From assembly GCA_947084965.1 (NCBI GenBank), contig CAMTUG010000001.1:147914-211913 (forward strand): a stretch of DNA of 64,000 bases, given 5' to 3'. A program made the position numbers and the translations under genes. Below, piece by piece: positions 9,114-49,797 of this stretch. Position 1 is the stretch's first letter. Every line of letters starts with the position of its first letter. The stretch is from an uncultured Parcubacteria group bacterium. GTDB lineage: Bacteria; Patescibacteriota; Patescibacteriia; UBA9934; CAMTUG01. The notes beneath the pieces are model-generated. The model was not told the origin of the DNA, made no database searches, and saw nothing but the letters and a program-made list of their open reading frames with translations.

Positions 9114-9168
9114 ATAGCGAACGGACCGGCTCGAGTGGCGAGCAGGTCCGTTTGGCGCGAGGTTCCCC

Positions 9169-11930: not shown

Positions 11931-11942
11931 TCACATTCTCCT

Positions 11943-23762: not shown

Positions 23763-24194
23763 ATGAATCACATCTCGGAGGAAAAGTTTGTGGCAAGCAT
23801 GCAGGGGGTAGAAAACCGCTTTCAGCAGATGGATAACCGTTTTGAGCAAATCGATAATCGCTTTCAGCTGGTGGATAACCGTTTTCAACAGGTGGACAAA
23901 CGATTCGAACAAATCGATAACCGTTTTCAACAGGTGGATAATCGTTTACAGCAGGTTGATAAGCGTTTTGAGCAGGTTGATAAGCGTTTAGACACGCTCG
24001 AGTTTCAGGTAAAGGGATTGAGAGACGATATTCGACAGGTTGAGGATAAGATGGACGTTAAGTTCGATACGATCATCAACATGCTCGATCGAGACACCCG
24101 ATGGAAAACGGACACCGAAGCTGAGGTTGCTGCGGCCCATGCGAGAATCGATCGTGTCGAAGTGCAACTTGCGCTCAAGCCAACGACGCCATAA
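23763..24194 (+). CDS. heptad-repeat coiled-coil protein (8x [I/V]D[N/K]RF[E/Q]Q)
   Basis: 21-bp tandem DNA repeats at about 23818-23985 encode MDNRFEQ IDNRFQL VDNRFQQ VDKRFEQ ... Confidence 0.55.
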   Translation: MNHISEEKFVASMQGVENRFQQMDNRFEQIDNRFQLVDNRFQQVDKRFEQIDNRFQQVDNRLQQVDKRFEQVDKRLDTLEFQVKGLRDDIRQVEDKMDVKFDTIINMLDRDTRWKTDTEAEVAAAHARIDRVEVQLALKPTTP

Positions 24195-24261
24195 GGATGC
24201 CTGGGTTACGAGGTTTTTGGCGGGGTCAGTGACCCTGCTTTGTGTTATAATCATCGGGCAT

Positions 24262-26388
24262 ATGAAGGAATTTATGCTCTCGGGCGGAGCTCCGGACGTG
24301 CCCAAGATTGATTACCAAAACGAGCTAAACGCAGAGCAGCTCGAAGTGGTGTTGAACGGCGATGGGCCGTGTTTGGTATTGGCCGGAGCGGGTTCGGGGA
24401 AGACACGGACGATCACGTATCGCGTGGCCTATTTGCTCGAGCAAGGGGTGCGACCAGATGAGATTCTGCTTTTGACCTTCACCAACAAGGCGGCCAAAGA
24501 GATGATGGAGCGCATCACCCACTTGCTCGGGTCGGTGCCGTACGGACTGTGGGGCGGGACGTTCCATTCGATCGGGAACCGCATTTTGCGTCAGTATGCC
24601 AACGTCATCGGCTACCAATCGAACTTCACGATCATGGATCACGATGATTCTGTGGATCTGGTGAAGATCGTCATTAAGGATTTAAAGATTGATACCAAGG
24701 AGAAGCGTTTTCCTTCGGCCGCCGTCGTACACGCGATTATTTCGTATAGTCGCAACGCCAAGATGTCGATCGAAGAAACGGTCGAGACGAAGTACTCTCA
24801 ATTTGTTGATGACAGTTCGACGATCGCGCGGATCGCGGCGCAGTATGAATCGCGCAAGCGCACCGGGAACACGATGGACTTTGATGACTTGTTGTTGCTC
24901 CTCGCTGATCTTTTAGCCACAAATCCACAAGTAAAAAATGCGCTTGCGACACGATTCCGCTATGTGTTGGTGGATGAGTATCAGGATACGAACGTGATTC
25001 AGGCGCGGCTAGTCAATGATCTCTCGAGTGTGCATCGCAATCTGCTCGTGGTCGGCGACGACGCTCAGTCGATCTATTCCTTCCGGGCGGCAGAGATCAG
25101 AAATATTTTAGGATTTCCGAACGCCCACTCGGGGGCCAAGACGTTCCGTCTGGAGACAAACTATCGTTCCACGCCAGAAATTTTGTCCCTGGCCAACTCG
25201 ATCATCGAACAGAACACGGACCAGTTTTCTAAAGAGTTGATCGCGGTGCGTGACGCATTTGAAAAACCAAACTTGATTCCAACGTCAGACACGCGCCAAG
25301 AGGCGCAGTACATTAGCGAGCAGATCGTCCAGATGATCGATAAGGGGATGCCGCTTTCTGAAATTGCCGTCTTGTTCCGCGCCGCGCATCACTCGCAAGC
25401 ATTAGAAATGGAGCTGTCGCGCCGCAACATTCCGTACGAGTTCCGCGGTGGGATGAAGTTTTTTGAACGCGCGCATATCAAGGACGTGGTTTCTTACATT
25501 CGTTTGATCGCTAACCCCAAAGACGGGATGGCTTGGATCCGTGTGCTGTCGCATCAGGTTGGAATTGGGGCGGTGACCGCGACCAAGATTATGGAGGTGA
25601 TGCAGAATTTTGAATCGATCGCTCAGGCGCTCGAAGCGGATTCAACGGGGTTCGTGCCAGGGCGCAGTTCGTCTGGCTGGCGATCCCTGACATCCGTCCT
25701 CAACTCGATGCACAAAACGGATCGCCAGCCGTCGTCGTTGATTCGCATTGTCGCTACCTCTGCCTATCAAGATTACTTGAACGCCGAGTATCCAAATGCG
25801 GCGGAGCGGTTGGAAGATATCGAACAGTTCGCCATTTTTTCAGAGCAATATTCTGACCTGTCGCAATTCTTGGAAGAAGTTTCACTTAAAGACGACTACG
25901 GCGCGGTGCAAGAAGAGGGTGGATACAAAGAAGAGCGGATGATTCTGTCGACGATTCATCAGGCTAAGGGACTTGAGTGGAACGCGGTTTTTGTGATGAA
26001 CTTGACCGACGGAGCCTTCCCGCATCCTCGGGCACTCAGTGAAGCGGGAGGGATCGAGGAAGAACGTCGCTTGTTCTATGTCGCCACCACGCGCGCGCGC
26101 AAGCATCTCTTTCTCACGTATCCAATTACCAGCGGGTATGAAACAATGGAGGTGCGCCAGCCGTCAATGTTCCTCGACGAGTTACCAAAAGGGTTGCTTG
26201 AGGAGGTGCGCGTCAAACGTCCGGCCGCGTCCTATCTTTCTTCACCTCGCGATTTGGGATCAAAAAGTCGTTGGGGGGAGAGTAGTGATGAGGAGTATGA
26301 CGAACCGACGATCGTTCTTGATGGGATGGGGGAGGTAAAGAAGGCTCCGCCGCGGACCGGGTTTTTGCGTTCTATCGATGAATTATGA
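24262..26388 (+). CDS. UvrD/PcrA-family ATP-dependent DNA helicase
   Basis: Walker A (AGAGSGKTRTI), DEYQDTN, and SF1 motifs through TIHQAKGLEW / YVATTRAR. Confidence 0.9.
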   Translation: MKEFMLSGGAPDVPKIDYQNELNAEQLEVVLNGDGPCLVLAGAGSGKTRTITYRVAYLLEQGVRPDEILLLTFTNKAAKEMMERITHLLGSVPYGLWGGTFHSIGNRILRQYANVIGYQSNFTIMDHDDSVDLVKIVIKDLKIDTKEKRFPSAAVVHAIISYSRNAKMSIEETVETKYSQFVDDSSTIARIAAQYESRKRTGNTMDFDDLLLLLADLLATNPQVKNALATRFRYVLVDEYQDTNVIQARLVNDLSSVHRNLLVVGDDAQSIYSFRAAEIRNILGFPNAHSGAKTFRLETNYRSTPEILSLANSIIEQNTDQFSKELIAVRDAFEKPNLIPTSDTRQEAQYISEQIVQMIDKGMPLSEIAVLFRAAHHSQALEMELSRRNIPYEFRGGMKFFERAHIKDVVSYIRLIANPKDGMAWIRVLSHQVGIGAVTATKIMEVMQNFESIAQALEADSTGFVPGRSSSGWRSLTSVLNSMHKTDRQPSSLIRIVATSAYQDYLNAEYPNAAERLEDIEQFAIFSEQYSDLSQFLEEVSLKDDYGAVQEEGGYKEERMILSTIHQAKGLEWNAVFVMNLTDGAFPHPRALSEAGGIEEERRLFYVATTRARKHLFLTYPITSGYETMEVRQPSMFLDELPKGLLEEVRVKRPAASYLSSPRDLGSKSRWGESSDEEYDEPTIVLDGMGEVKKAPPRTGFLRSIDEL

Positions 26389-26939
26389 ATCCACACTACA
26401 AGCGCTATCGCGGGGGCGGGGGGAGTCATCACGCTTCAAAGTCATGGCTCGGACTCGGGGTATTAGTGCTCGGGGTGTTTCTCACGTTTGGCGGGATCGT
26501 TTGGTTTCGTAAATCAGCTGATCAGTTGGAGATCGGTGGAGAGGATGATTCGACATCAACGACTGGGATAGAAGTTCGGGATGAGACGGCACCGACGCGC
26601 CGTTCGCGCGAAGAGGTGCTGTTAACCGATACTGCCGGAGGATCGCAGACGATCGTTAGCCGGGAAATCGAAGATCGCGTTTTTCGCTTGGCGATCGTCT
26701 CGCATTTGAGCGATCCGCCCGTGGGGCAATTCTACGAAGGGTGGTTGTTACGCGAAGATCCATTTGATTTTTTCTCGGCTGGTGCGATGGTCAAAAATGC
26801 GGACGGCACCTACGCTCTGGTGTGGGAAGGTCCGCGCGGAAAAGATTTCGCTGATTTCACGAACATCATCATTACCCGAGAATTACCGGACGGAGATTCA
26901 GCGCCGTCTTCGGTGCATGTGCTCGAAGGGTCTTTTTAA
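26385..26939 (+). CDS. hypothetical single-pass membrane protein (anti-sigma-K RskA-like C-domain?)
   Basis: TM at residues 20-40. C-domain ...DPPVGQFYEGWLL...DGTYALVWEG resembles RskA C-terminal domains; weak. Confidence 0.4.
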   Translation: MNPHYKRYRGGGGSHHASKSWLGLGVLVLGVFLTFGGIVWFRKSADQLEIGGEDDSTSTTGIEVRDETAPTRRSREEVLLTDTAGGSQTIVSREIEDRVFRLAIVSHLSDPPVGQFYEGWLLREDPFDFFSAGAMVKNADGTYALVWEGPRGKDFADFTNIIITRELPDGDSAPSSVHVLEGSF

Positions 26940-26942
26940 TCT

Positions 26943-28259
26943 ATGGAGTCGGTCCGTGCCCAACATCTCGAACGCAACTGGGACAAGAACGACGCCCAGT
27001 ATTTCGTTACGTTTTTAGCCGATCGGTTTTATCCGTTGAACGAACGATTCGCACGGGCATTTGAAAAACGTTTCGGCGGGGTGTGGAAACCGATCTATAT
27101 TCTGTCTGGCATGCCAAATGAACTTTTTCGCCCCGAGAACTTTTTGATCGTCAATCGTCAACATCATCCGGGAACGGTCTGTCTGCAAGATTACGAAGAT
27201 CAGAATGTCGAGTTTTCAACTTCGCCAAAGGTGAAGAAGATGCTGAAGACGCTTCTTAAAAAGCAAGGCCGTTTGTTTATCGTTCCGTTCACCGCGTCGC
27301 ATCTGACGATCAAGATGTCCGGCCTCACCGTGATCGCTCCACGAGCAGACTTGGCCAAGAAGTACGACAACAAGATCGAGCATATAAAACTTTTCGAGCG
27401 CCTCGGTGTGGCAACACATCGCTATGCCATTTTCAAAAACGCCGATGATCTGCGTCGCCACGCACCTCATTTGCCAGCGTGTTATCTGTCTGCTCCGTTC
27501 ACGAGCGGTGGGGCAGAGGCCGGGTTTGTTTATGGGCCGGCTGACGTTGAGAAGTTTCTTACCTCACTACGCGAAGTGAATGCCAAAGGGGCGATCCTCG
27601 CCACGCGGATCGTTAAAGATATCATCCTTGCTCCGAACGTCAATGCGATTGTGCTTGGCAAAGATAAGGTCGAGGTGATTGCTGTCGCTGATCAGGTGCT
27701 CCACGGCAACGCCTACCTCGGCAACATCTATCCGAGCAAAGCGAGTAAAGCGATGCGTGCGAAGATGATCGAAGCGACCAAGATCGTCGGACGTTATCTT
27801 TCGCGCCTCGGCTATCGTGGATTATTTGGTATTGATTTTTTGATCGATCGCAAGGGAGGAATGTACGCCACGGATTTGAATCCGCGCCGACAAGGTGGGT
27901 ATTTCTGCAACGTGCTTATGTCGAAGAAAGTTGATTTAGTTGATCTTGAAGTTGCTGTGGCACTGGGCGAGAAGATTCCTGCAATTACAATGAAGGACTT
28001 TCAGTGTGCGTTTGCTTGGGGGCATTCAAAGATTAAACCGCACGGAAAGGCGCGGAAGATCAGAAAAGTTTTAAAGAATGGCGACGCCGAGGATCCGTTT
28101 CATGAAGTGGGGGCGGAGTTTTCAGCGATCTTTTATGAGAAGGATTCTGTGATGGAGTCGGGGAGTGCTGGGTATTATGTGGTGAGTGGGAAGTCGCGTT
28201 CGACTGTTGCAAAGAAAACGGAATTGGAACCAGAGAGGATTTTGAAACGGGTTTTTTAA
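26943..28259 (+). CDS. ATP-grasp superfamily enzyme of unknown specificity
   Basis: C-terminal ATP-grasp motifs (GLFGIDFLIDRKGGMYATDLNPRRQG). No recognisable substrate or precursor-peptide gene nearby. Confidence 0.55.
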   Translation: MESVRAQHLERNWDKNDAQYFVTFLADRFYPLNERFARAFEKRFGGVWKPIYILSGMPNELFRPENFLIVNRQHHPGTVCLQDYEDQNVEFSTSPKVKKMLKTLLKKQGRLFIVPFTASHLTIKMSGLTVIAPRADLAKKYDNKIEHIKLFERLGVATHRYAIFKNADDLRRHAPHLPACYLSAPFTSGGAEAGFVYGPADVEKFLTSLREVNAKGAILATRIVKDIILAPNVNAIVLGKDKVEVIAVADQVLHGNAYLGNIYPSKASKAMRAKMIEATKIVGRYLSRLGYRGLFGIDFLIDRKGGMYATDLNPRRQGGYFCNVLMSKKVDLVDLEVAVALGEKIPAITMKDFQCAFAWGHSKIKPHGKARKIRKVLKNGDAEDPFHEVGAEFSAIFYEKDSVMESGSAGYYVVSGKSRSTVAKKTELEPERILKRVF

Positions 28260-28361
28260 TCATCGCCGAGAGGTTGGGGTACTTAAAAACATCTTTTACA
28301 ACTCGTTTGAATACATAATGTCGTCAAACGAAGTGTAAATGTACTTTTTGAGACACCCAAC

Positions 28362-29588
28362 CTACAACTCGTGATCGTAATGCCAGCCGCTGGAACGCGT
28401 TTTGAACTCGACTCCTAAGAGAGAGGCGCGTGTCCACGACCCTGATCCATACCGGGACTGAATTTTATCCAAGGCAGAAGTTGCGCTGAGCAATCTCTGT
28501 TCTTTTTTAAACAATGATCGCGCTTCAGCACCAGTGCAAAGCTGGCTGGCGGTGATGCCGATCAGGCGCACAGGGTGATCGAGATCGTTTTTGATTAAAC
28601 TCCAACCGATCTCGGCCAGTTTGGCGCCGTCGGACGTTGGTTCAGCAAAGCGATGCTCGCGGCCAAATCCGCCCAAGTCGCCGAAGCGTACGTAGGCAGA
28701 AACAGAACGAGCGACAAGTCCGTCTCGGCGCAATCGCCAAGCGACTTTGTCGGCGAGTGCCAGCAGTTGCCGCTTAATATCGCGCGGGTCATCTAAATCA
28801 CGCGGCATCGTATACGAATGACCAACAGATTTCGGTGCTGCCTCGCTACTGGCAACAGGGGAGTCGTCGCGACCAAAGGCCGCCTCATGTAACCACCAGC
28901 CCCAACTTTTAAACTCTTGTACCAGGAGCTCGCGCGGATAGCGGCGCAATTGTTCAACAGTAAAAATGCCCAGATCGGCCAGATGCTCCTGTGTGCGCCG
29001 GCCGATTCCGGAGATATCCTCAAGTTCGCAAGATCCAACAAAGTCGAGCACCGCTTCTGGCCGCACAACGGTTAGGCCGTTTGGTTTGTGGGAGCCAGCA
29101 GCGAGTTTAGCGATTAACTTATTCGGCCCGATGCCAACCGACGCCGTAATTCGTTCACCGCACTCTTCTGCCAATCGCGCACGAATCGTCTGGGCCAGCA
29201 TCATTGCTCCAAAGTAGTCACGTGCGGCGTGGGTGACATCAAGATAGCTTTCGTCTACGCTCGCTGGCTCAACCTGGTCCGTATAGTCGCGATAAATCGC
29301 ATTGAACCGAGCGGTAATCTCGGAATACTTTTCTGGATCTCCCGGAATAATAATCAAAGAAGGACAGATGCGTCGTGCTTCCCAGGTCGACATTGCTGTT
29401 TTCACTCCAAGCCGTTTGGCTTCAACAGATGCTGTAGCCACGATCGTGCGTTGGGCCTGATCCGCTCGTGAAGGATCAAAACTCTTGCCACTGACCCCAA
29501 TCGGCTTGCCACGCAAAAACGGATTCGCTTGCTGTTCAACGCTCGCGAAGTACGAGTTCATGTCGATGTGCATGATGATGCGATCCAT
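28362..29588 (-). CDS. dinB: DNA polymerase IV (Y-family)
   Basis: IMHIDMNSYFASVE, SVDESYLDV and other UmuC/DinB motifs. Confidence 0.9.
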   Translation of the reverse strand: MDRIIMHIDMNSYFASVEQQANPFLRGKPIGVSGKSFDPSRADQAQRTIVATASVEAKRLGVKTAMSTWEARRICPSLIIIPGDPEKYSEITARFNAIYRDYTDQVEPASVDESYLDVTHAARDYFGAMMLAQTIRARLAEECGERITASVGIGPNKLIAKLAAGSHKPNGLTVVRPEAVLDFVGSCELEDISGIGRRTQEHLADLGIFTVEQLRRYPRELLVQEFKSWGWWLHEAAFGRDDSPVASSEAAPKSVGHSYTMPRDLDDPRDIKRQLLALADKVAWRLRRDGLVARSVSAYVRFGDLGGFGREHRFAEPTSDGAKLAEIGWSLIKNDLDHPVRLIGITASQLCTGAEARSLFKKEQRLLSATSALDKIQSRYGSGSWTRASLLGVEFKTRSSGWHYDHEL

Positions 29589-29716
29589 AAGGGAGTGGAT
29601 AGTGATATCGACGGAGGAGGTTCGAGCTGACGAGTTCTCTTTTCGCGCGCAGCCCTTATCCTTTCTTCGGGGTCGAGCACGAAAAGAGTGTCAGCGAGAC
29701 CGAGTACGGCGATATC

Positions 29717-29965
29717 TTATCCATCACAATACATTTCGGTTAATCGCCACTCGAGCAATTCTGGATCCAGTTTTAACTTAAACGCGTTGGCATCATCAGA
29801 GACAGAGAAGTAGAATAAACGCTTCGTCCCTTCGCGGCCAGGGTGCACCAGGTTCACATGCTTAATGTCATACATCTGGTTTTGCCAACGCATCTTCAGC
29901 GGCCGCACGCGGTTTTTGGTGAACGTGACGATCACGTCCACCGGGTCGTTCAAAAACGTGTGCAT
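29717..29965 (-). CDS. hypothetical small protein in the lexA-dinB operon
   Basis: 82-aa ORF co-oriented between lexA and dinB, ending 129 nt upstream of the dinB start. No known motif. Confidence 0.45.
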   Translation of the reverse strand: MHTFLNDPVDVIVTFTKNRVRPLKMRWQNQMYDIKHVNLVHPGREGTKRLFYFSVSDDANAFKLKLDPELLEWRLTEMYCDG

Positions 29966-29966
29966 A

Positions 29967-30158
29967 TTAAATGTGCGCTAAGATCCCGCGGACGATCTGC
30001 TTAAACTTGCGGCGGCTGGTGTGTACCCGCAGCATCTTGCGCGCATGTTGAATCCGGCGCAGGGACTTGGTTGGCATGAACGAAACGGTCGAACCGTAGT
30101 AGCGAAGAATGGCTTCAGACATAGAGTTTTGTATAGGCGGGGCCACTGCGCCCCGCAT
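29967..30158 (-). CDS. hypothetical small basic protein in the lexA-dinB operon (true start probably the internal Met at 30122)
   Basis: 51-63 aa, Arg/Lys-rich. The first 12 codons of the long form overlap the family-B hairpin repeat. Confidence 0.35.
   Translation of the reverse strand: MRGAVAPPIQNSMSEAILRYYGSTVSFMPTKSLRRIQHARKMLRVHTSRRKFKQIVRGILAHI
30126..30152 (-). repeat. GC-hairpin repeat, family B, copy 2 (inverted orientation)
   Basis: Minus-strand reading GCGGGGCGCAGTGGCCCCGCCTATAC, downstream of lexA. Confidence 0.65.
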
Positions 30159-30210
30159 GAGTTAACAAATTTAATCAACCGTACATGGGCGTACCTTTGC
30201 CTCCGTTGAA

Positions 30211-30837
30211 TTATGCCGTCGCAAATTTACGAATCACTCCGCGTACAATTCCTTGGATGTTGATGTCACCGTTCACGATAATCGGCTGCATGGTCGAGTT
30301 AGCTGGTTGCAGACGAATGTGGGTTGATTCACGGTAGAAGCGTTTGAGTGTGGCGTAAGCGTTGTCGAGGAGCGCCACGACGATGTCTCCGTTCTTTGGT
30401 GAAGGGTTGCGTTCGATGATCACGTAGTCGCCGTCGAAAATTCCATCTTCGATCATCGAGCGCCCTTTGACTTTGAGCACATACGAGTTGGTCTGATCGA
30501 TCACAAAGTCGCTCGGCACCGCTATCGCTTCACGCTGTTCGACCGCTTCGATCGGTTCACCGGCGGTGATCAGCCCCGAGAGCGGGAGCATGATCGCCAA
30601 TGGGTGTGATTCCACGCGGTTCATCGGGTGCGACAGGCTGAGCGACCGCGCTTCGCCTTCTTCGCTCCCGGTCAGGAACCCTTTGTCGATCAGCGCCTGG
30701 ACGTGCTGGTGCACGGTGGCAGGGGAGGAGAGCTCGAACGCGTCGGCGATTTCGCGGTACGTCGGCGCATACCCGTTCTCTTCGATCTGGTTCCTGATGA
30801 ACTCCAGGATCTCGGATTGTTTCTTTGTCAGCGCCAT
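30211..30837 (-). CDS. lexA: LexA repressor (S24 peptidase)
   Basis: N-terminal wHTH (LTKKQSEILEFI...YREIAD). Cleavage-site and Ser/Lys dyad motifs (VKGRSMIEDGIFDGD...; KRF). Confidence 0.9.
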   Translation of the reverse strand: MALTKKQSEILEFIRNQIEENGYAPTYREIADAFELSSPATVHQHVQALIDKGFLTGSEEGEARSLSLSHPMNRVESHPLAIMLPLSGLITAGEPIEAVEQREAIAVPSDFVIDQTNSYVLKVKGRSMIEDGIFDGDYVIIERNPSPKNGDIVVALLDNAYATLKRFYRESTHIRLQPANSTMQPIIVNGDINIQGIVRGVIRKFATA

Positions 30838-30849
30838 AAGTTATGTGAT

Positions 30850-30906
30850 TCGCCCGTTCGGCTTATGTTCGTACTATAGACCGAACAAAAACCGAACGCA
30901 AGCGAT
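30850..30906. promoter_or_regulatory. candidate SOS operator: two GTTC-N7-GTTC direct repeats in inverted arrangement upstream of lexA
   Basis: Plus strand GTTCGGCTTATGTTCG-tactatagac-CGAACAAAAACCGAAC. In lexA sense this reads GTTCGGTTTTTGTTCG. It sits about 30-80 nt upstream of the lexA ATG and overlaps a TATAGT -10-like hexamer. Confidence 0.4.
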
Positions 30907-30962
30907 AGGGTGGGGATAAGTTTCAAAGTGGTACTATTACAGACATGTTTAGTTAGTTAAGT

Positions 30963-32213
30963 TTGTCTGTGTCGTATTCGGATGTTTTAAAAAAGTTTCT
31001 CTGGATGCTGTTTGCCTGGGTTTTTGGGCTTACGATTTTTGGTATCACTTTTGCCATAACAGAGATTCCTCAGCCCTGGCTTATGATAGTTGTGGCAGGG
31101 GTTGTTATCCTTGTTGCAGCACAGTTGATGTATTCAACAATAAGTGATCTTGAGAGTAAATTTAAAAAGGAAATTTCCGCGATTGAAGGTGGGGCAAACT
31201 CAATAATCATCGCGGCAGAAAAGTTCAAAGTTAGTGCTGAAGAAGATGCGGCGCTTTGGAAGAAAACACTTTTGGAACGAAGTAGTGGCTTCCCAAGTCT
31301 TGTTGACTTGATTGGGGAGTATGAAAAGCTTCGTGATCAGAAAGATGAATACTATTTAAATAGAAAGTCTCATCCGGCGCATCGGGCTGCAGACTTAGTT
31401 GCGGAGCATTCGAGATTAAGACGCGAGGCGGAACGTAAGAGACGTCAGATTCAGGCGATCATCGAATATTATGAAAGTATCGCTCCGTTTCTTCTTGATT
31501 TTAAGGAACAGGAGTTTGGCGACCTTGATGCAGAGAACACATTGGCTGACTATACGCCAGAAGAGCAGCAAGATCCGGTAACGCAATATTTGGTTAAGGA
31601 CGAGTACAGAAGTCTTTCTTCTACCGAGAGAAATCAGCGTGCGCTCGATAGGTTCTGGTCACGACCAAAGTCAAATTGGATGATTGGTCGTTTGTACGAA
31701 CGATATGTTGGATACTTATTTGAAGCTGATGGCTATGATGTCGAATACTACGGTATTTTTAAGGGGTATGAGGATCTTGGTCGGGATTTGATTTGTAGGA
31801 AAGGGAAACAGGTCGTGATTGTACAGTGCAAGAACTGGTCGAAGTTTAAAACTGTTTTCGAGAATCACATCTTTCAGTTTTTCGGGACCGTATTTTATTT
31901 CCGTGACCAGAACCGCGATAGAGATGTATCCGCGGCATTTTATTGCACAACATCCGTTTCAGACTTTGCTCGCAGATTTGCATCTGAGCTGGGCGTCAAG
32001 CTTTTTGAGAACCACGTTTTCGATCGGTCCTACCCATGTATAAAATGTAATATCTCGTCAGGTGGTGAAAAGATTTACCATCTTCCATTTGATCAACAGT
32101 ATGACAATGTTAAGATCGAGGTCCATAAAGGCGAGTTTTATTGCAAGACTGTACAAGAAGCCGAAAAAGCCGGATTCAGAAGGGCTTTTCGGTGGGCAGG
32201 TTTGAAACAGTAG
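30963..32213 (+). CDS. membrane-anchored coiled-coil protein with C-terminal Mrr-cat (PD-(D/E)xK restriction-endonuclease-like) domain
   Basis: Two N-terminal TM helices and a long charged helical region, then RLYERYVGYLFEADGYDVEYYG...DLGRDLICRKGKQVVIVQCKNW typical of the Mrr catalytic fold. Cys-containing C-terminal tail. TTG start. Confidence 0.65.
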   Translation: MSVSYSDVLKKFLWMLFAWVFGLTIFGITFAITEIPQPWLMIVVAGVVILVAAQLMYSTISDLESKFKKEISAIEGGANSIIIAAEKFKVSAEEDAALWKKTLLERSSGFPSLVDLIGEYEKLRDQKDEYYLNRKSHPAHRAADLVAEHSRLRREAERKRRQIQAIIEYYESIAPFLLDFKEQEFGDLDAENTLADYTPEEQQDPVTQYLVKDEYRSLSSTERNQRALDRFWSRPKSNWMIGRLYERYVGYLFEADGYDVEYYGIFKGYEDLGRDLICRKGKQVVIVQCKNWSKFKTVFENHIFQFFGTVFYFRDQNRDRDVSAAFYCTTSVSDFARRFASELGVKLFENHVFDRSYPCIKCNISSGGEKIYHLPFDQQYDNVKIEVHKGEFYCKTVQEAEKAGFRRAFRWAGLKQ

Positions 32214-32265
32214 GCGGTTCCTTGGGTGCTCAGTCAAGTGTTAATCGGTGGTAGAATATAAGCCT

Positions 32266-32619
32266 ATGAGTGACATCAAAAAGCTCCAGGATGAGGTCGT
32301 GGCCTTTCGGGATGCGCGCGACTGGAAGCAGTTTCACAAGCCGAAGGATTGTGCAATTTCGTTGACGCTTGAGGCGGCGGAAGTTGCCGAACTCTTTCAG
32401 TGGAAAAACGATGAAGAGATTGATGCCTATCGTCCAGGCGGCGCAAAGCACGACGACATTAGTGATGAACTCGCGGACGTGATGTACTGGGTGCTTTTGC
32501 TTGCCAATGACTTCGGTGTCGACTTAGATGAAGCTTGGAGTCGCAAGATGGCGAAGAATGATGCGAAGTATCCGGTCGATAAAGCGAAGGGATCGCATAA
32601 AAAATATACTGAACTCTAG
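32266..32619 (+). CDS. MazG-like all-alpha NTP pyrophosphohydrolase
   Basis: EAAEVAELF...DELADVMYWVLLLANDFGVDLDEAWSRKMAKNDAKYP are MazG/NTP-PPase EExxE and D-E motifs. Its stop lies 3 nt before the DUF2075 start. Confidence 0.7.
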   Translation: MSDIKKLQDEVVAFRDARDWKQFHKPKDCAISLTLEAAEVAELFQWKNDEEIDAYRPGGAKHDDISDELADVMYWVLLLANDFGVDLDEAWSRKMAKNDAKYPVDKAKGSHKKYTEL

Positions 32620-32622
32620 TTT

Positions 32623-34476
32623 GTGTTTGTTTATCGACATACTGTCGCGGGGTTCCGCGAAGACGTTGAAAAGAATCAGATCGGCGACATCGTTCAATCG
32701 TATTACGAGAATACGACCGGCCGTCGAGTTTCGCCAAACGAGAAACGTTCATGGAGCAATTCGCTTCAGTTTATGGAGCGTATTGTTCGACGATCGAACG
32801 TTGCTCCGTCGTGCGGTATTTTGATTGAATATGTGATTCCATCAACATCCAATCGGATCGACTTTTTTATTTCCGGGCATGATGACGCAGGTAATAAGAA
32901 CTTTGTCATTATTGAATTGAAACAATGGGAGACAGCGGAGGCAACTGAAAAGGAGGATATTGTTTCAACTTTTCTCGGCGGTAGTGTGCGCGAGACGACA
33001 CATCCGTCGTACCAAGCACTTTCCTACAAACTTTTTCTCGAGGACTATAACGAAAACATTGATTCAAAAAATCTCATACCGCATTCCTGCGCCTATTTGC
33101 ACAACTTTGCTGAACGCAGTCCCGAACCGCTCACTTTGGGAATTTATGCCGATACGGTGAAAGAGTCACCGATTTACTTCCGTGATGACTACGAAAAACT
33201 GGAACAGTTTTTGAAGAAGTATGTTGGCCAGGGCAACGGCGAAGAGATCTTGTACGAAGTTGAATACGGCCGTATTCGTCCGAGCAAGAAGTTGATTGAT
33301 TACGTCTCGAGCATGCTCGAGGGGAATCAGGAGTTTATCTTGCTCGACGAACAAAAGATTGCCTACGAAACGGCGATGTTTGTAGCGAGGCAAGAAGAAA
33401 AGTCCGTTGTCATTATTTCCGGTGGACCTGGCACAGGGAAGTCCGTTGTCTCCGTTAATCTTCTCGGTGGGTTGTTACGAGATGAAATGAACGCCGTCTT
33501 TGTTGCTCCGAACGCTTCGTTTCGCGATGCAATGGTGCACAAGCTCGCGAGGAAGATGAAAAAGACGCGGCTCAAGTCGTTGTTTAAAGGATCCTCGGTG
33601 TTTGTTGATGCAGAGCCGAACACGTTTGGTGCGATCATTATTGACGAAGCTCACCGTTTGAAGAACGAAAAGGCGTACATGTATCAAGGTGAGAATCAGG
33701 TTGAGGACATTGTCCGTGCAGCCAAGACGAGCATTTTCTTCGTTGATGATAATCAAGTGATTCGTCCGGATGATATCGGCTGTGAAGACGAGATTCGACG
33801 CGTCGCTAAGGCGGAAGGAGCTAGGGTTTACGAAGTCGAGTTGAAAGCTCAATTCCGTTGCGCTGGTGCGGAGGGGTATTTGAACTGGTTGGACAACACA
33901 CTGCACATCCAAGAAACGGCGAACTTCGACGGTTGGGAGCAACAGGGGTTTGAGTTTAAAGTTTTCGATGATCCAAATGCGCTTGCTAACGCAATCAAGG
34001 CAAAGCAAGTGGAAGGGAAAAGCGCGCGGCTTGTCGCGGGTTACGCTTGGGAATGGACGAGCGGCAAAGAGGGGAATATGGACGCGCAGCACAACGATGT
34101 CACAATCCCCGAATATGACTTCTCAATGCCGTGGAACTCGCGAAAGATCGGTACGACCTGGGCGATCGATCCAGGCGGCGTCCACCAGATCGGCTGCGTT
34201 CACACCTCTCAGGGCCTGGAGTTCGACTACATTGGTGTGATCGTCGGGAAGGATTTGCAGTTTGATCCTGCCACGGGCGAGTTTTACACCGATTGGTCGG
34301 AGTACAAGGATCACAACGGTAAGAAAGGACTAAAAAAGGATCCAGAAAAGTTGAACCGCCTTGTGCGCAATATCTACAAGATTTTGATGACACGCGGGCA
34401 GAAGGGATGTTACGTTTATTTCGTCGACAAGAATGTCGAAGATTACTTTAAGAAGAGGTTGGGACCACAAAAATAA
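32623..34476 (+). CDS. DUF2075-type (Schlafen-like) P-loop NTPase with N-terminal PD-(D/E)xK nuclease-like region
   Basis: N-terminal SWSNSLQFM... and IDFFISGHDDAGNKNFVIIELKQWE (D-E-K). Walker A ISGGPGTGKSV, Walker B IIIDEAH. C-terminal helicase-like region to ...CYVYFVD. GTG start coupled to the MazG-like gene. Confidence 0.65.
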   Translation: MFVYRHTVAGFREDVEKNQIGDIVQSYYENTTGRRVSPNEKRSWSNSLQFMERIVRRSNVAPSCGILIEYVIPSTSNRIDFFISGHDDAGNKNFVIIELKQWETAEATEKEDIVSTFLGGSVRETTHPSYQALSYKLFLEDYNENIDSKNLIPHSCAYLHNFAERSPEPLTLGIYADTVKESPIYFRDDYEKLEQFLKKYVGQGNGEEILYEVEYGRIRPSKKLIDYVSSMLEGNQEFILLDEQKIAYETAMFVARQEEKSVVIISGGPGTGKSVVSVNLLGGLLRDEMNAVFVAPNASFRDAMVHKLARKMKKTRLKSLFKGSSVFVDAEPNTFGAIIIDEAHRLKNEKAYMYQGENQVEDIVRAAKTSIFFVDDNQVIRPDDIGCEDEIRRVAKAEGARVYEVELKAQFRCAGAEGYLNWLDNTLHIQETANFDGWEQQGFEFKVFDDPNALANAIKAKQVEGKSARLVAGYAWEWTSGKEGNMDAQHNDVTIPEYDFSMPWNSRKIGTTWAIDPGGVHQIGCVHTSQGLEFDYIGVIVGKDLQFDPATGEFYTDWSEYKDHNGKKGLKKDPEKLNRLVRNIYKILMTRGQKGCYVYFVDKNVEDYFKKRLGPQK

Positions 34477-34515
34477 AACAGCCATCCTCCTTTGGCTGCT
34501 CTATCCGGTACCCGG

Positions 34516-34719
34516 TTAATCGGTGTTGCACTCACGTACGCAGTAGTAACAGCCGTTGACCTGGCTGTAGTACACTTGTGCGGCGTGGACAGCAGCTCGA
34601 CAGTTGGTGAAGTCGCCCAGGTATTTCGCATTTTCCCCATTTGGGAAGAAGGAACAGCCCAGGGTGTGGACCTCGTGATCCCCGTTTGCCTGCGCGTTTG
34701 TATTGACGTAGTAACGCAT
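34516..34719 (-). CDS. small Cys-rich (metal-binding?) protein, second gene of the unknown two-gene operon
   Basis: 67 aa, MRYYVNTNAQANGDHEVH..C..C..CYYCVREC. Five Cys with a C-terminal CxxCxxxC. 21 nt downstream of the 331-aa ORF. Confidence 0.5.
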   Translation of the reverse strand: MRYYVNTNAQANGDHEVHTLGCSFFPNGENAKYLGDFTNCRAAVHAAQVYYSQVNGCYYCVRECNTD

Positions 34720-34740
34720 AGTTTTTCGTGAGATTTTGAA

Positions 34741-35736
34741 TTAGCCGACCTTTGTTTTATGAAGCCGTTGTTTAACTGCTTTTGATAGCTTTGTCTTCCA
34801 GCCGTGGACATGCACGACACGATCGAAGTCGCGTTGTGCTAGGGCGAGCAACTGAAGACGGCTCAGTTTACTTAGATCCTCCCAATTGCATCCCATGATG
34901 TACGCAGCATTTCCATATTCCACATTCTCGAAGACTACTAGGTCGTCAGCATATTGCGCGCCGAAATAGCGACGGAATCCGTCCGTTCCAGCGATGTATT
35001 GCTTTGGATCGAGCGTACTTAGGAAACCGTAACGATCCTCAACGTTTTTTCTGAGTTCAGGGGAGACGACTCGACGTGTGCCGATGATTTTTTCGATATT
35101 GCTCTCGCGTTCTCCTGGCGGCAGGATTTGCCACGTGATCGCCACGGTTTTCAAGTAGTCCTCTCTGCTCGCGCTTGCCAGAAACACATCAACGTGTCCG
35201 ACGTTTTCCTGAATGATTCCAAGATTATAAAGTAGGTCTGCCTCTAAGTTGGACTTTTCGTATTCGAGCACCTCCTCGGATCGGAAGTTGATCGTGACAC
35301 GACCGTCTGGATTTTGATCAAGCACATCAATACGGATTGCGAGCTGTTTTGCTGGGAAATATTCACGTTCGTAAACATCGCGATCCCATTCGACTGTGTG
35401 TGAGCCGTTGCTCCAGTCACCGAAGTTCGGAGCCTCGAACGAATAGTGTTTCTGAGTCATAGGTAGGTCCTTGCGAACGCGCTCTCGTCCGTTAAGGTTT
35501 GTGTCTGACCAGCGGCCCATGTTGGCCGGGGGAATTACAGATTCTGGAGCAACGACACGACCGTCTTTTACCTCGATGTTCAGATGTGCGTAGCGTCCAG
35601 CGGCGATCGAAGCGATGGTGGTTTTAATGGTTGTACCGACGACGAAGCCTGTTTTCATGGTCGCAACCTTGGTGTGGATCCGTTTCGGGACTTTTAGGAA
35701 GCTTCGTGGCTTCCAGGGTATTTCTCGATATGACAT
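34741..35736 (-). CDS. unknown 331-aa protein (possible C-terminal Rx6H HEPN-like motif), first gene of a two-gene operon divergent from the XRE/ImmA pair
   Basis: No family recognised by eye. C-terminal ...LAQRDFDRVVHVHGW contains an R-x6-H spacing. AT-rich codon usage like the rest of the island. Confidence 0.5.
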   Translation of the reverse strand: MSYREIPWKPRSFLKVPKRIHTKVATMKTGFVVGTTIKTTIASIAAGRYAHLNIEVKDGRVVAPESVIPPANMGRWSDTNLNGRERVRKDLPMTQKHYSFEAPNFGDWSNGSHTVEWDRDVYEREYFPAKQLAIRIDVLDQNPDGRVTINFRSEEVLEYEKSNLEADLLYNLGIIQENVGHVDVFLASASREDYLKTVAITWQILPPGERESNIEKIIGTRRVVSPELRKNVEDRYGFLSTLDPKQYIAGTDGFRRYFGAQYADDLVVFENVEYGNAAYIMGCNWEDLSKLSRLQLLALAQRDFDRVVHVHGWKTKLSKAVKQRLHKTKVG

Positions 35737-35878
35737 AATGGGCTCGGGACTTTTGGAATTAGAGTAGCGCTGTCGGACCGCCCCAGTGGTTCGTTTCAGT
35801 GTGTTGATGCCAGTTTATCAGTACGGCAAATATCTTGTCAAATCGAACCGAAACCGGTATGCTATCAAAGCAATAAAT

Positions 35879-36208
35879 ATGGAAAATGAAAATGTCACGA
35901 TCGGGTCCAGAATTCGAGCCGAACGAAAACGACTCGGAATATCTCAGCTGCGGCTCGCTAAAGACGTCGGCTTTGAGTCGGCAACAGCGATCTCGTTGAT
36001 CGAAAGCGGGGTGAGAAGCGTTGCTGCAGAGAAGCTTGGCCTTATTGCAAGGGCCCTGAAAGTTGACATCAAGCAGTTGCTAGGACAGAGGCCTGATCAG
36101 GTGGATGTCATCGTCGCACTTAGGGCCGACAAGGAGCTTGGTTCGGCCGAGAAGAATTACATTCTCAATTTTATCCAAAATGCAAAACATCAACACAGAA
36201 AAGGATGA
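35879..36208 (+). CDS. XRE-family helix-turn-helix regulator
   Basis: IGSRIRAERKRLGISQLRLAKDVGFESATAISLIESG is a canonical HTH_3. Internal Met start of the 35786 ORF. Confidence 0.75.
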   Translation: MENENVTIGSRIRAERKRLGISQLRLAKDVGFESATAISLIESGVRSVAAEKLGLIARALKVDIKQLLGQRPDQVDVIVALRADKELGSAEKNYILNFIQNAKHQHRKG

Positions 36209-36689
36209 GCTGGACTTGGGGCCGCGAAAGAACTTTGCCTTGGCGATGGCTCGTAAGCTGTTGAAGTGTGCGGAGATCACGGCCGCTCCTGTTTCATTAC
36301 ATCGTGTAGTTGAGTATGCTAGGAGGGACAGAAACCTCACTATTATTTTGGAGAAGATCCCGGGTCGTATCTCAGGGATCATGGTCAAGGTTCGCGACCT
36401 CGACGAAGTCTCCACCTTTATCGGTATTAACACGGAAGAACCGTGGCACAGGCAGCGTTATACACTCGGTCATGAATTGGGTCATGTGTTTATGGAACAT
36501 TCCGGATGCACGGGCGATGATTCATACGAAGAACGTGAAGCCCAGATATTTGCAGCGGAACTTCTTATGCCAACGGCGTTCATCAAACAGGACTTAAAGG
36601 CCCTGCGTAACATCCCGGCGCTTGCTAGGCTATACTGCGTAAGTGAGCATGCGCTTAGTATTAAGCTTAAAGATTGCAGACTGATTTAG
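36180..36689 (+). CDS. ImmA/IrrE-family zinc metallopeptidase (DUF955)
   Basis: HEXXH motif (TLGHELGHVFMEH) with downstream E (EEREAQIFAAELLMP). Overlaps the XRE gene end. Confidence 0.75.
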   Translation: MQNINTEKDELDLGPRKNFALAMARKLLKCAEITAAPVSLHRVVEYARRDRNLTIILEKIPGRISGIMVKVRDLDEVSTFIGINTEEPWHRQRYTLGHELGHVFMEHSGCTGDDSYEEREAQIFAAELLMPTAFIKQDLKALRNIPALARLYCVSEHALSIKLKDCRLI

Positions 36690-36753
36690 CTGGCAGTTAA
36701 ATCAATCTAATTTCAGCTGCTAAGGATCAACGAGAGGCGGAAAGATCTGTAGT

Positions 36754-37482
36754 ATGAATCAACAATCCACCCTCCAACGCATCATCCGCCTCAAGCAGCT
36801 CTTCGCTGACCGCAAGATCCCGACGCTTTCGAGCCATGAAGTGAATCCGGGGTTGGAGAAAGGGTCGAGGGAGAATTATTTATACTTCACTCTGCCTCCG
36901 TGTTTGAATTTTCAGCGACAGTCGCCGGCGATGTGGAAGTCGGCGCTCGCGACGTGGGAGGATCCGGAGACGAATTATTTGTTTTTTCCTGAGCGCGTGG
37001 CAACGACAGACATCGAGAAAGTGCGGGTGGATTTGCGCAAACACAAACTTTCGTTGCAACCGAATAAGCACACGGAGATTTGGACCAAGATCTGTCAGGT
37101 GTTGCACGAGAAGTTTTCTGATGACCCACGGGAGATCTTGCGGAGAGGGGAGATGGATGCGGGAAAGGTTTTGGATCTGATTCAAGTTGAGCACAAGGAG
37201 CGCTTTCCGTATTTGCGTGGGCCAAAGATGGCTAACTATTGGTTGTACATTTTGTCGCAATACACGGACGTGCAGTTTTCGAATATGGCCTGCATCTCGA
37301 TCATTCCTGATACGCACGTGGCGCAGTGCTCGGTGAAGCTCGGGCTCACGAAGGATGGGGCGGGACCGGAAGAGATCGCTGAGGCGTGGGTGAAGGTGCT
37401 GGCGGGGTCGGGAATTGATCCTGTCACGATGCATCCGGTTTTATGGAACTGGAGTCGCAACGATTTCCAACCGGAGGTTTAG
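36754..37482 (+). CDS. conserved hypothetical protein
   Basis: 242-aa ORF. Its TAG stop is embedded in the family-B hairpin repeat. Confidence 0.45.
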   Translation: MNQQSTLQRIIRLKQLFADRKIPTLSSHEVNPGLEKGSRENYLYFTLPPCLNFQRQSPAMWKSALATWEDPETNYLFFPERVATTDIEKVRVDLRKHKLSLQPNKHTEIWTKICQVLHEKFSDDPREILRRGEMDAGKVLDLIQVEHKERFPYLRGPKMANYWLYILSQYTDVQFSNMACISIIPDTHVAQCSVKLGLTKDGAGPEEIAEAWVKVLAGSGIDPVTMHPVLWNWSRNDFQPEV

Positions 37483-37508
37483 GCGGGGCACAGTGGCCCC
37501 GCCTATCT
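37481..37508 (+). repeat. GC-hairpin repeat, family B, copy 3
   Basis: TAGGCGGGGCACAGTGGCCCCGCCTATC. Confidence 0.65.
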
Positions 37509-39931: not shown

Positions 39932-40909
39932 CTAGGGCGACGGCGTGAGGGGTGGAAGTGCGTAGCGGGCGAGCCAGCGCTCAGTCTTGAAGCAGTGGAC
40001 GCTGGCTGCGGTAAGGTCAGGGGCGACCTCGAAGCGGATCTGGTACTGCGATCCCCGCGGCGACCGCTGCTGGTAAGCGAACATCGACACGAGGTCGAGG
40101 ATGGCGAGCACCTCGTCGGCGGTCGGGTTCGTGAGCGAGATCATCCCGAGGTGGTCAGTGCCTTCGGGGAGGTTGCACCCCAGGTGCTCCGGCGCGACGA
40201 TCGGCGTGCTACCTCCGGCGCCGATGATCGCTTCGCGGACGGACTGCGCCATCCAGTGGAGGAGGCCGGTCCGGTGCTTGCGCTCCGCCTGGATCGTCTT
40301 CGAACGATCGATCACGCTGACCGGATTGATCGCTTCGTCGGGGGTCCAGGCACGGACGAAGGGGCACTCGGCGAAGCAGAGGGCGATCGCGCCGTGGCGG
40401 TGTTCGCCCATCCGTCCGAGGCGCGTGCCGATCACCTGGAGCTTCATCTCGAGGATCCCAGGGCCGCGATGCCGCTGCTCCGTGGGGTCGCTTTCCGGGT
40501 TCAGCCAGTAGACGATGTGTGTCCAGAACAGGTCACGCGTGTCGTTCGGTTCGAGGGTGAACTTGCTGGCCCAGGCGCAGTAGTCGGCGTAGCGCTCGAG
40601 GATCGTGACCGCGTGCTTCATGGCGATCCCGCGGGCCTTGCCGGCCGCGAGCCAGGTGTTGTTGATCTGGCGGACCAGGCTCTTGATGACCGACCCTCGC
40701 GTGCTCGTCTGGTTCAGGATGCCCTGGGCGTCGTACTCGGCGGCGACCCGGCGGGCCGTTTCGAGCATCTGCCGTTCGGTCGGCGAGAGGTAGAACCAGT
40801 CACGGCAGAGCCGCTCTTCGACGTCGAGGCGGTGCAGCCAGTGGCGGTCGAGCTCCCAGGGGAGCGGGAGGTGGTTGGGGTGGATCGGAGGGGCGGTCAG
40901 ATCGTTCAT
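39932..40909 (-). CDS. hypothetical protein (high-GC islet 3)
   Basis: 325-aa ORF with GC-rich codon usage. No recognisable motif. Confidence 0.4.
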   Translation of the reverse strand: MNDLTAPPIHPNHLPLPWELDRHWLHRLDVEERLCRDWFYLSPTERQMLETARRVAAEYDAQGILNQTSTRGSVIKSLVRQINNTWLAAGKARGIAMKHAVTILERYADYCAWASKFTLEPNDTRDLFWTHIVYWLNPESDPTEQRHRGPGILEMKLQVIGTRLGRMGEHRHGAIALCFAECPFVRAWTPDEAINPVSVIDRSKTIQAERKHRTGLLHWMAQSVREAIIGAGGSTPIVAPEHLGCNLPEGTDHLGMISLTNPTADEVLAILDLVSMFAYQQRSPRGSQYQIRFEVAPDLTAASVHCFKTERWLARYALPPLTPSP

Positions 40910-41064
40910 CGTTGACTCCGCACGGTTACCACCGTGAGGCGAAGGGTGAAACCCCTTGAATCACATGCGACCCGCATGCTCACTCGGTACTCACCGAGCT
41001 AGATCAAGGACAGGTGGCGCCTGCGCTTTTGGATTATCAATAAAATCCGCCCGCGTCAAGTGTT

Positions 41065-49761: not shown

Positions 49762-49769
49762 GATAGGCG

Positions 49770-49797
49770 AGGCCTAGTGGCCCCGCCTATCTCTATC
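49770..49797 (+). repeat. GC-hairpin repeat, family B, copy 4
   Basis: TAGGCGAGGCCTAGTGGCCCCGCCTATC, immediately after the pyrH stop. Confidence 0.65.

Follow-up and report, generated by a model that had tools for sequence, protein, structure and literature searches.

A probable mosaic island beside lexA in a Parcubacteria bacterium, with candidate defence modules and an unannotated protein family linked to DNA-damage regulators

Introduction

What is the role of a 6.6-kb, low-GC block that adjoins lexA, the SOS repressor gene, in an uncultured Parcubacteria group bacterium? The block covers roughly positions 30922-37506 of the 64,000-nucleotide stretch of DNA analysed here, which we call the window. 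The original prediction, made from the letters alone, was of a candidate undescribed defence locus that may as a whole be wired to DNA-damage signalling. Is it one such system, several unrelated ones, a set of stress-response genes or the remains of a mobile element? Classical defence systems are regarded as scarce in CPR bacteria, so that candidates from this group are useful.

The island and its borders

The features of the region are collected in Table 1. The original prediction was right about the genes and domains present, as the open reading frames and the Pfam, NCBIfam and PADLOC profiles confirm, and about the drop in GC content past the lexA promoter. The island has a GC fraction of 0.476 and the rest of the window 0.535, and the three lowest of the 64 one-kb segments lie at 31-34 kb (0.435, 0.461, 0.476). 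The dip is deepest in gene A (0.428) and slight across D-G (0.495).

The original prediction also called the block accessory, and only one close relative (L086, a 3.2-kb contig) documents a variable junction. Its dinB-lexA segment is 85% identical to ours at the nucleotide level up to position 30921, in the lexA promoter, where homology stops and different low-GC DNA follows. In clustering at 90% identity none of the genes B, C, D, E, F, G and H has a cluster mate, whereas the backbone genes for LexA, MetK and a YgjP-like protein have such mates elsewhere, as does gene I, the next after H. The homology break, the GC contrast and this difference in cluster mates indicate that the block is accessory DNA at a variable spot; the lexA flank is a variable hotspot in this lineage. 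The right edge is probably near 37506, and H is thus probably the final gene of the block. H itself gave no matches in Pfam, PADLOC, PHROG or PDB. Two genes of 242 and 173 aa beside an A homologue (L125) were considered as relatives of H and I, and rejected; they have no similarity and the lengths are a coincidence.

As predicted, no integrase, transposase or phage structural family was matched by any of the ten proteins scanned (30.9-38 kb), and neither flanking direct repeats nor a tRNA was found at the block. A 24-nt inverted repeat with copies at 30133 and 37483 was rejected as an island border, as its four copies in the window identify it as a dispersed hairpin. LexA has the LexA_DNA_bind and Peptidase_S24 domains (L085 gene table), and its promoter region contains a nested inverted repeat, CGTTCGG..CCGAACG, at 30856-30898. 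Patterns derived from the repeat upstream of lexA gave nothing above chance inside the island, which speaks against the wiring of the whole locus to DNA-damage signalling.

Table 1. Positions of the features in and around the island (coordinates are those of the window).
Feature	Position	Strand	Details
lexA-82-aa ORF-dinB backbone string	28362..30837	-	lexA 30211-30837, 82-aa ORF 29717-29965, dinB 28362-29588
lexA promoter region and left island junction	30838..30962		L086 homology ends 30921
A, nuclease: two TM segments, helical linker, Mrr_cat PD-(D/E)xK domain, C-terminal 'sunset'	30963..32213	+	Pfam, NCBIfam
B, MazG-like all-alpha NTP pyrophosphohydrolase	32248..32619	+	Pfam MazG-like PF12643 1.9e-17
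C, N-terminal PD-(D/E)xK-like nuclease and SF1 DUF2075 (Schlafen group 3) helicase	32623..34476	+	Pfam 3.9e-92
E, 67-aa protein of zinc type, rich in His and Cys, 21 nt 3' of D	34516..34719	-	
D, 331-aa basic protein, unannotated family; candidate damage-induced effector	34741..35736	-	
Divergent promoter region D/F	35737..35878		-35 boxes overlap: TTGACA (D), TTGTCA (F)
F, 109-aa XRE-family repressor, CapH/ImmR-like	35879..36208	+	HTH_3 1.8e-10
G, ImmA/IrrE (M78) zinc peptidase, HELGH motif	36180..36689	+	Peptidase_M78 6.2e-16; ORF open from 36105
H, 242-aa protein	36754..37482	+	singleton at 90% clustering; next gene I has mate
GC-rich hairpin after H	37483..37506		one of four dispersed copies; terminator-like; probable right block edge

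A membrane-tethered nuclease

Gene A, which the gene caller starts at 31005, encodes two N-terminal hydrophobic segments, a Pfam Mrr_cat domain (1.4e-9) and the C-terminal NCBIfam 'sunset' domain (NF051437, 1e-7). At least 4692 proteins, the majority from Patescibacteria, are homologous to A at 50-57% identity, and A homologues stand alone in varied contexts. Given its abundance and strong conservation across CPR genomes, A may have a role typical of the lineage instead of a defensive one. As a first module of the island, the protein is held in the membrane by its two TM helices, with the Mrr-type catalytic domain predicted on the cytoplasmic side, and could cut incoming DNA at the membrane, by analogy with SNIPE (see below). 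PDB sequence searches with A, C and G returned no match, and none of the PADLOC models covers A, B, D or E.

A MazG-like and Nhi-like cassette

The nearest solved relatives of B are dCTP pyrophosphatase 1 / RS21-C6 (PDB 6sqw/2a3q), which match at 2.3e-19 over residues 2-117. In C the SLFN-g3_helicase/DUF2075 domain occupies residues 260-602 (3.9e-92). The motifs Ey..R.DF..ELKQW, GGPGTGK and DEAHRL are invariant, and so is an E..D..ExK-type motif within residues 68-102 across 16 homologues. The statement that nothing here matches a named system was too strong. By architecture C is 'Nhi-like', that is, an N-terminal nuclease and a DUF2075 helicase in one protein (Millman et al. 2022), and it has partial matches to the PADLOC models PDC-S41 (3.6e-17, residues 3-315, model positions 5-292 of 657), AbiO (1e-13, residues 235-412) and Nhi (1.7e-12, residues 236-390 only); F and G match capH and capP.

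B and C had been described as an overlapping pair. They are indeed adjacent, but 3 nt apart; a 4-nt overlap is found in relatives. B adjoins the C homologue in 12 of the 22 metagenome loci with C, none of which contains A, D, E, F or G. Two plasmids carry the pair as well, one from Priestia, where a type I R-M system adjoins it, and one from an archaeon. This pairing is conserved across bacteria and archaea, and a literature search found no description of it. We propose that B would hydrolyse (modified) dCTP-type nucleotides, and that C would unwind and degrade invader DNA as an Nhi-like nuclease-helicase. This conserved dCTPase-like and Nhi-like cassette is a further candidate from the island.

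Protein D, its partner E and the regulators near D

The most interesting gene of the island is D. It had no matches in Pfam, NCBIfam or PADLOC and only chance-level ones in PHROG. No structural neighbour was found in the PDB, a D profile run against PDB sequences gave no match either, and a literature search found no description of the family. There are about 2000 clusters at 50% identity, in many phyla, on plasmids and in one prophage, where D sits between the lysis and tail-fibre genes (a moron position). On a Sinorhizobium plasmid it lies beside an AAA ATPase and a helicase, at another locus it closes a LexA-like / patatin / CD-NTase-like gene string, and it co-occurs with CBASS-like and E1-like/DUF6527 operons. 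Several identities for D were discarded. The residues of a nucleotidyltransferase (GS..DxD), a GIY-YIG or a PD-(D/E)xK enzyme are not conserved in alignment A1, and these assignments have no structural support; an acidic DNA mimic or PsiB-like protein does not fit a family with a median pI of 9.

E has no Pfam matches, belongs to a PHROG family and travels with transposons and resolvases; its homologues adjoin RhuM, STAND, SIR2 and Tn3 genes. E is a mobile-element hitchhiker and not a fixed partner of D. A relationship to the 'sunset' domain of A was rejected (hhalign probability 0.3%).

Which genes accompany D elsewhere? In 80 non-redundant loci from many phyla, the 3 kb upstream of D were compared with the 3 kb downstream and with the flanks at 3-8 kb. 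Upstream, ImmA occurs in 18 loci, a HEPN-like gene in 15 and a LexA-like gene in 9; downstream none of these occurs, and the flanks contain ImmA in three loci, a HEPN-like gene in one and a LexA-like gene in none. The PADLOC capP model matches six of the upstream neighbours (best 8.8e-49) and the capH model five, and a LexA-like gene overlaps or abuts D in L052, L065, L059 and L055. About 40% of D loci (33/84) have no regulator or partner nearby, and some of the neighbours there, such as ThyX or DNA polymerase B, resemble housekeeping genes. Across many phyla the layout of D recurs, the regulators being LexA-like, ImmA/CapP-like or linked to a sigma factor. Judged by these neighbourhoods, the unannotated D family is linked to DNA-damage regulators. 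The predicted defence-type content of the island is borne out.

The regulator pair F/G

In the window the regulatory layout is plain to see: the genes F and G are divergent from D, across overlapping promoters. The D promoter has an extended -10 box (TGaTAAACT) and a conserved leader of about 85 nt. One other locus, L004, shares only G-F-D, at 68% nucleotide identity (D 74% at the amino acid level), with a DUF2188 gene in the place of E. The D/F promoter region is 81% identical between the two loci, against 68% across the whole module, and the divergent boxes are conserved.

F starts with the ATG at 35879 and matches the PADLOC capH model at 2.1e-7 (model positions 6-99 of 103). G is 169 aa long according to the gene caller (169-194 aa depending on the start) and equally short in L004; it matches capP at 4e-19, over model positions 7-153 of 242 only. 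[quoted passage not shown] 2022; Calloji et al. 2026). The XRE/ImmA pair had been taken as one of a kind that senses DNA damage, but G has no GAF domain to form this groove, therefore sensing of the CapP kind cannot be assumed. In a third of CapPs (33%) a cysteine-switch loop is inserted after HExxH, ahead of the third zinc ligand (Lau et al. 2022; Calloji et al. 2026). In G, as in L004, a Cys lies 12 residues past the initial His of the HELGH motif; compared with the Thauera CapP, the loop lacks about 11 residues.

For this third module we propose that F would repress the overlapping divergent promoters. Upon stress the ImmA-type peptidase G would cleave F and D would be expressed, here together with E. 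D, a basic and probably nucleic-acid-binding protein whose fold is without a solved relative, would then act as the effector.

Competing interpretations

Our preferred reading, held with moderate confidence, is that the block is accessory DNA of mosaic make-up, located in a variable hotspot by the lexA promoter and composed of at least three independently mobile modules of conflict or defence type: A; B and C; and F/G and D with E. The modules appear independent because L004 shares only G-F-D, the C loci are devoid of A, D, E, F and G, the A homologues stand alone and those of E travel elsewhere. A single locus or system, as originally predicted, did not hold up, as A, B+C and F/G+D are found apart from one another elsewhere and E does not always accompany D. 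That all the genes from A to G make up a single integrated defence system coupled to the SOS response is highly improbable: the genes are contiguous and adjoin lexA, and some C homologues lie beside an operon of LexA-like and DUF2075-like genes, but the modules are combined in no other locus examined, the gene orientations imply at least three transcription units and the search for LexA-operator-like repeats inside the island detected none.

Could D instead be a factor for DNA-damage tolerance or repair, of SOS or IrrE/DdrO type, and its module a stress response rather than an immune one? We regard this as rather unlikely. The LexA-like genes that overlap D in CPR genomes are co-oriented with it, D is a few kb from lexA-dinB both in the window and in L045, and an ATP-dependent DNA ligase, DNA polymerase B and ThyX are among its neighbours elsewhere. 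The basic pI would suit such a role, and repair genes are controlled by IrrE/DdrO, the pair most closely related to CapP/CapH. A repair factor sits badly, however, with the patchy distribution of D across phyla, its presence on plasmids and in the moron slot of a prophage, the pairing with a HEPN-like protein in 15 loci and the company of CBASS-like and E1-like/DUF6527 operons. The idea that the block, or at least F-G-D-E, is a decayed ICE or prophage remnant, with F/G as an ImmR/ImmA switch and D/E as leftover cargo, is less probable still. No integrase, excisionase, replication or structural genes were found in the region, nor direct repeats or a tRNA at its flanks. Moreover, the G-F-D triad is kept as a unit in the different genomic context of L004, and many genomes in which D is linked to regulators have no sign of a mobile element. 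The ImmA-like size of G and its missing GAF domain, the PHROG family and transposon company of E, the moron position of D and the low GC are what such a remnant would explain.

Within the mosaic reading, a bolder hypothesis can be put forward only tentatively. D may be a large family of stand-alone, DNA-damage-induced effectors, with a fold without a solved relative, placed repeatedly under three unrelated damage-sensing switches (LexA-like autocleaving repressors, XRE+ImmA/CapP and sigma-factor-linked ImmA) and coupled to HEPN-like proteins in one clade. It could be a new kind of effector, anti-phage or abortive-infection in type, or have a new role in SOS, and the MazG and Nhi-like pair could form another defence cassette, of two genes and so far without a name, common to bacteria and archaea. 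The damage-responsive regulators CapH/CapP, CapW and CapK/CapS now serve as flags for immune operons. In about 40% of the loci sampled D follows such a regulator, yet the family has no annotation, defence-database model or structural relative, which makes it a concrete, testable candidate for a new effector.

Comparison with known systems

The type IV restriction enzyme Mrr consists of Mrr_cat and an N-terminal winged-helix DNA-recognition domain, Mrr_N. A shares the catalytic domain, but its N-terminus is made of TM helices and a coiled region without a match to Mrr_N. The recently described SNIPE, a nuclease bound to the membrane, cuts phage DNA while this is being injected and carries a DUF4041 DNA/TMP-binding domain and a GIY-YIG nuclease (Nature 2026). 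In both proteins a membrane anchor at the N-terminus is followed by an elongated linker and, on the cytoplasmic side, by the nuclease at the C-terminus. They have no homology: A has Mrr_cat (PD-(D/E)xK) where SNIPE has GIY-YIG, has two TM segments and a C-terminal 'sunset' domain, and has no DUF4041; Mrr_cat and 'sunset' are the only domains found in it. A, a CPR-wide, membrane-tethered Mrr nuclease with a logic parallel to that of SNIPE, is likewise a candidate from the island.

C resembles Nhi of S. epidermidis, the 'Nhi-like' proteins, PDC-S41 and AbiO in joining, within one polypeptide, an N-terminal PD-(D/E)xK nuclease to an SF1 helicase of the DUF2075 type, although its profile matches to Nhi, AbiO and PDC-S41 are only partial. 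It differs from them in having a conserved MazG/DCTPP1-like gene as its partner, as seen in 12/22 relatives. This gene, B, is an all-alpha MazG-type NTP pyrophosphatase like DCTPP1/RS21-C6, which it matches over its full length. If active, B would act beside a nuclease-helicase, and not alone as dNTP-depleting defence enzymes do.

F/G are like CapH/CapP in their matches to the PADLOC models and in their arrangement, with adjacent genes for an HTH repressor and an M78 peptidase lying upstream of the controlled operon on the opposite strand. Other D loci have a full-length CapP (8.8e-49) and the sigma-factor variant described for CBASS. The 169-aa G differs from CapP in having neither the HTH-like linker nor the GAF domain, and hence no ssDNA groove. 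CapH/CapP control CBASS, DISARM or a Ub-like system, whereas the putative target of F/G is the unannotated D. ImmR/ImmA, of ICEBs1 and phage-like elements, sit in and control a mobile element, whereas F/G have no integrase, excisionase or conjugation genes nearby (30.9-38 kb). Both pairs combine a short M78 anti-repressor peptidase of about 170 aa with a co-transcribed XRE repressor and are oriented divergently from the target promoter; unlike that of ImmR/ImmA, the putative target of F/G is a single effector-like gene.

Genes and borders of the accessory block

The original prediction placed an AT-rich defence island beside lexA and dinB and offered it as a candidate undescribed locus. The reading frames lie at the positions it gave, and profile searches agree with its domain calls (see the table). 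The low G+C is confirmed at 0.476 against 0.535 in the remaining window, and when the 64 one-kb values are ranked, the bottom three all fall at 31-34 kb. The fall is concentrated in gene A (0.428) and is slight across D-G. As predicted, integrase, transposase and phage structural families were matched by none of the 10 proteins scanned; the sole tRNA in the window is at 51 kb.

Genes of the island with their positions in the window and their domain content
Gene	Position	Strand	Content
A	30963-32213	+	Membrane nuclease: two N-terminal hydrophobic segments, then Mrr_cat (1.4e-9); C-terminal NCBIfam 'sunset' domain (1e-7)
B	32248-32619	+	MazG-like (1.9e-17)
C	32623-34476	+	Nuclease-helicase: DUF2075/Schlafen-group-3 helicase (3.9e-92)
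D	34741-35736	-	331 aa, no Pfam family
E	34516-34719	-	67 aa, no Pfam family
F	35879 (ATG) to 36208	+	XRE HTH protein
G	36180-36689, ORF open from 36105	+	M78 ImmA/IrrE peptidase

This island is real, accessory and of defence type in content. L086, a 3.2-kb contig from a different sample, matches window 28668-30921 at 85% identity, a stretch that spans dinB, an 82-aa ORF, lexA and the lexA promoter (protein identity 99% for LexA and 94% for DinB). The match stops at 30921, past the counterpart of which L086 is unrelated low-GC DNA (0.44) coding for a 161-aa protein. Among the 15 billion proteins of a sequence collection, cluster mates at ≥90% identity exist for LexA, MetK and the YgjP-like product of gene I, whereas B, C, D, E, F, G and the 242-aa protein H have none; this comparison covers B-H, the exact A sequence being absent from the collection. 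From the end of the L086 match and the cluster mates of the backbone but not of B-H, we therefore draw the accessory block from ~30922 to the hairpin at 37483-37506, H included.

That hairpin was rejected as an island-specific border, since three further copies are dispersed over the window. The 24-nt GC-rich element, ATAGGCGGGGCCACTGCGCCCCGC, lies at 11908-11931, 30133-30156, 37483-37506 and 49767-49790, with none expected by chance, directly 3′ of genes like a REP or terminator element.

The closest relative of the B+C pair (L087 2438-4714, 68% amino acid identity) has a counterpart of gene I as well, a YgjP-like gene of 60% identity. Other cargo separates it from C: two genes of 198 and 123 aa, and one for a 250-aa Cas4-like nuclease. 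The content between these two anchors therefore varies.

The backbone beside the island (24040-30837) is a DNA-repair neighbourhood with a UvrD-type helicase, a 438-aa protein without a Pfam match, dinB and lexA. The 82-aa ORF between the last two (29717-29965) is kept in L086, matches no family and apparently belongs to the lexA-dinB gene string. Upstream of lexA, a nested inverted repeat (30856-30898, CGTTCGG..GTTCG..CGAAC..CCGAACG), also kept in L086, is a candidate LexA operator of the lineage; pattern searches found no convincing copy of it within the island. Elsewhere, one-kb patches at 9001-10000, 40001-41000, 42001-43000 and 63001-64000 reach a G+C of 0.63-0.68 against a mean of 0.53, and a 325-aa ORF (39932-40909, minus strand) has no Pfam match and a long antisense ORF.

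One system or several modules

The idea that the block is a single locus was not borne out, as its parts occur apart in other genomes: the D module, B+C, A and E are each found separately. The closest D homologue (L004, 74% amino acid identity) matches the window in G-F-D alone, at 68% nucleotide identity over 34763-36688. Its flanks are unlike those of the window, and a DUF2188 gene stands in the position of E. Homologues of C (37-68% identity) are found in 22 metagenomic loci, 12 of which have a MazG-like gene directly adjacent, mostly through a 4-nt overlap, and A, D, E, F and G occur in none of the 22. Two plasmids carry the B+C pair as well, one haloarchaeal and one from Priestia, where a type I R-M system lies on one side of the pair and restriction genes on the other. 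Gene A has at least 4692 full-length homologues at 50-57% identity, mostly in Patescibacteria, which are solitary and in unrelated contexts. The 112 homologues of E (50-70% identity) neighbour RhuM/nSTAND, a SIR2-STAND gene with resolvases, a Tn3 transposase or small phage-like gene clusters; E and D are together in just one of 80 D loci, in an arrangement unlike that of the window.

The D family and its control

D, the controlled gene, is the true puzzle of the island. All 55 aligned family members were scanned at lenient thresholds without a match in Pfam, NCBIfam or PADLOC. Matches to PHROGs are isolated and at chance level: the best, E 0.0019, is seen in 2 of the 55, and D itself gives phrog_13816 at E 0.025. 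The family is sizeable: a word-index search gave 709 matches, clustering at 50% left 2019 representatives, and all are of single-domain length (~320-340 aa). Residues that do not vary include H113, E177, E270/N271 and R306/H309. Its loci are spread over Saccharibacteria, other CPR groups, Chloroflexota, Nitrospirota, Acidobacteriota, Cyanobacteria, Proteobacteria, Bacteroidota, Bacillota and Actinomycetota, and include 14 plasmids and one prophage, where D lies between lysis and tail-fibre genes.

We compared the 3 kb upstream of D with the 3 kb downstream and the 3-8 kb flanks in 80 non-redundant loci. An ImmA-type peptidase lies upstream in 18, mostly divergent; some are XRE fusions, and others come with a sigma-like gene and a 157-aa gene, an arrangement published for certain CBASS regulators. 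A LexA-like S24 repressor lies upstream on the same strand in 9, overlapping D or ≤63 nt away in 4 of these. In 15, the upstream stretch encodes a protein of 227-258 aa in which the motif RNxLTHR is invariant; it is putatively HEPN-like, on a sub-threshold Pfam match. None of the three occurs within 3 kb downstream in any of the 80 loci, and the 3-8 kb flanks hold 3, 0 and 1, respectively. The PADLOC capP model matches 6 and capH 5 of the upstream neighbours (best 8.8e-49).

Some of these loci are operon-like. At L041 4404-8972, a LexA-like gene, a patatin-like gene, a 351-aa CD-NTase-like gene, a 147-aa gene, DUF2188 and a D homologue follow on one strand, which has the appearance of a CBASS-like operon controlled by a LexA-type repressor. 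In L010, L011, L013 and L051 the D homologue is last in a string of XRE, ImmA, DUF6791-ThiF (E1-like) and DUF6527. This ubiquitin-like operon type was tied to CapH/CapP by Lau et al., who also described DUF2188 operons under CapH/CapP, one type of which, 'DUF2188 + hypothetical protein', may contain D.

In the window, D and F start from overlapping, divergent sigma-70-like promoters, and the promoter boxes and ~85-nt D leader are kept in L004 at 81% identity. At 81%, the leader (35737-35811 against L004 9925-10000) is better conserved than the coding module (68%), and its L004 copy holds an inverted repeat of 10 nt. The leader may serve as an operator or as an RNA element.

Comparison with known systems

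From gene context we infer the mechanisms proposed for the island's modules. F aligns to almost the whole capH model (2e-7), while G covers only positions 7-153 of the 242 in capP, where the protein ends. Unlike CapP, G is without a GAF domain and is for this reason closer to the ImmA type.

C has invariant PD-(D/E)xK nuclease (Ey..R.DF..ELKQW), Walker A (GGPGTGK) and Walker B (DEAHRL) motifs in that order, the same nuclease-then-helicase architecture as published for Nhi and the 'Nhi-like' defence protein. Its PADLOC matches to PDC-S41, AbiO and Nhi are significant yet partial. The closest solved relatives of B are dCTP pyrophosphatase 1 and RS21-C6 (2.3e-19, full length). By analogy with what is established for DCTPP1, B would hydrolyse nucleotides of the dCTP type, which may be modified, and C would attack invader DNA. 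No published description of this pairing was found in the literature searched. In L102 (7854-10532), L108 (3434-6112) and L105, a LexA-like gene precedes another DUF2075-like gene, a distant one, and the two run convergently to the C homologue, which suggests that DUF2075 helicases are likewise put under SOS-type control.

The accessory, defence-type content of the original reading stands beside a different overall picture: the island is a mosaic of known kinds, with a Nhi-like nuclease-helicase and its new partner, an ImmA/CapP-style switch and a membrane nuclease. The last of these, A, has none of the domains of SNIPE, and the two have in common the logic of a membrane anchor joined to a nuclease.
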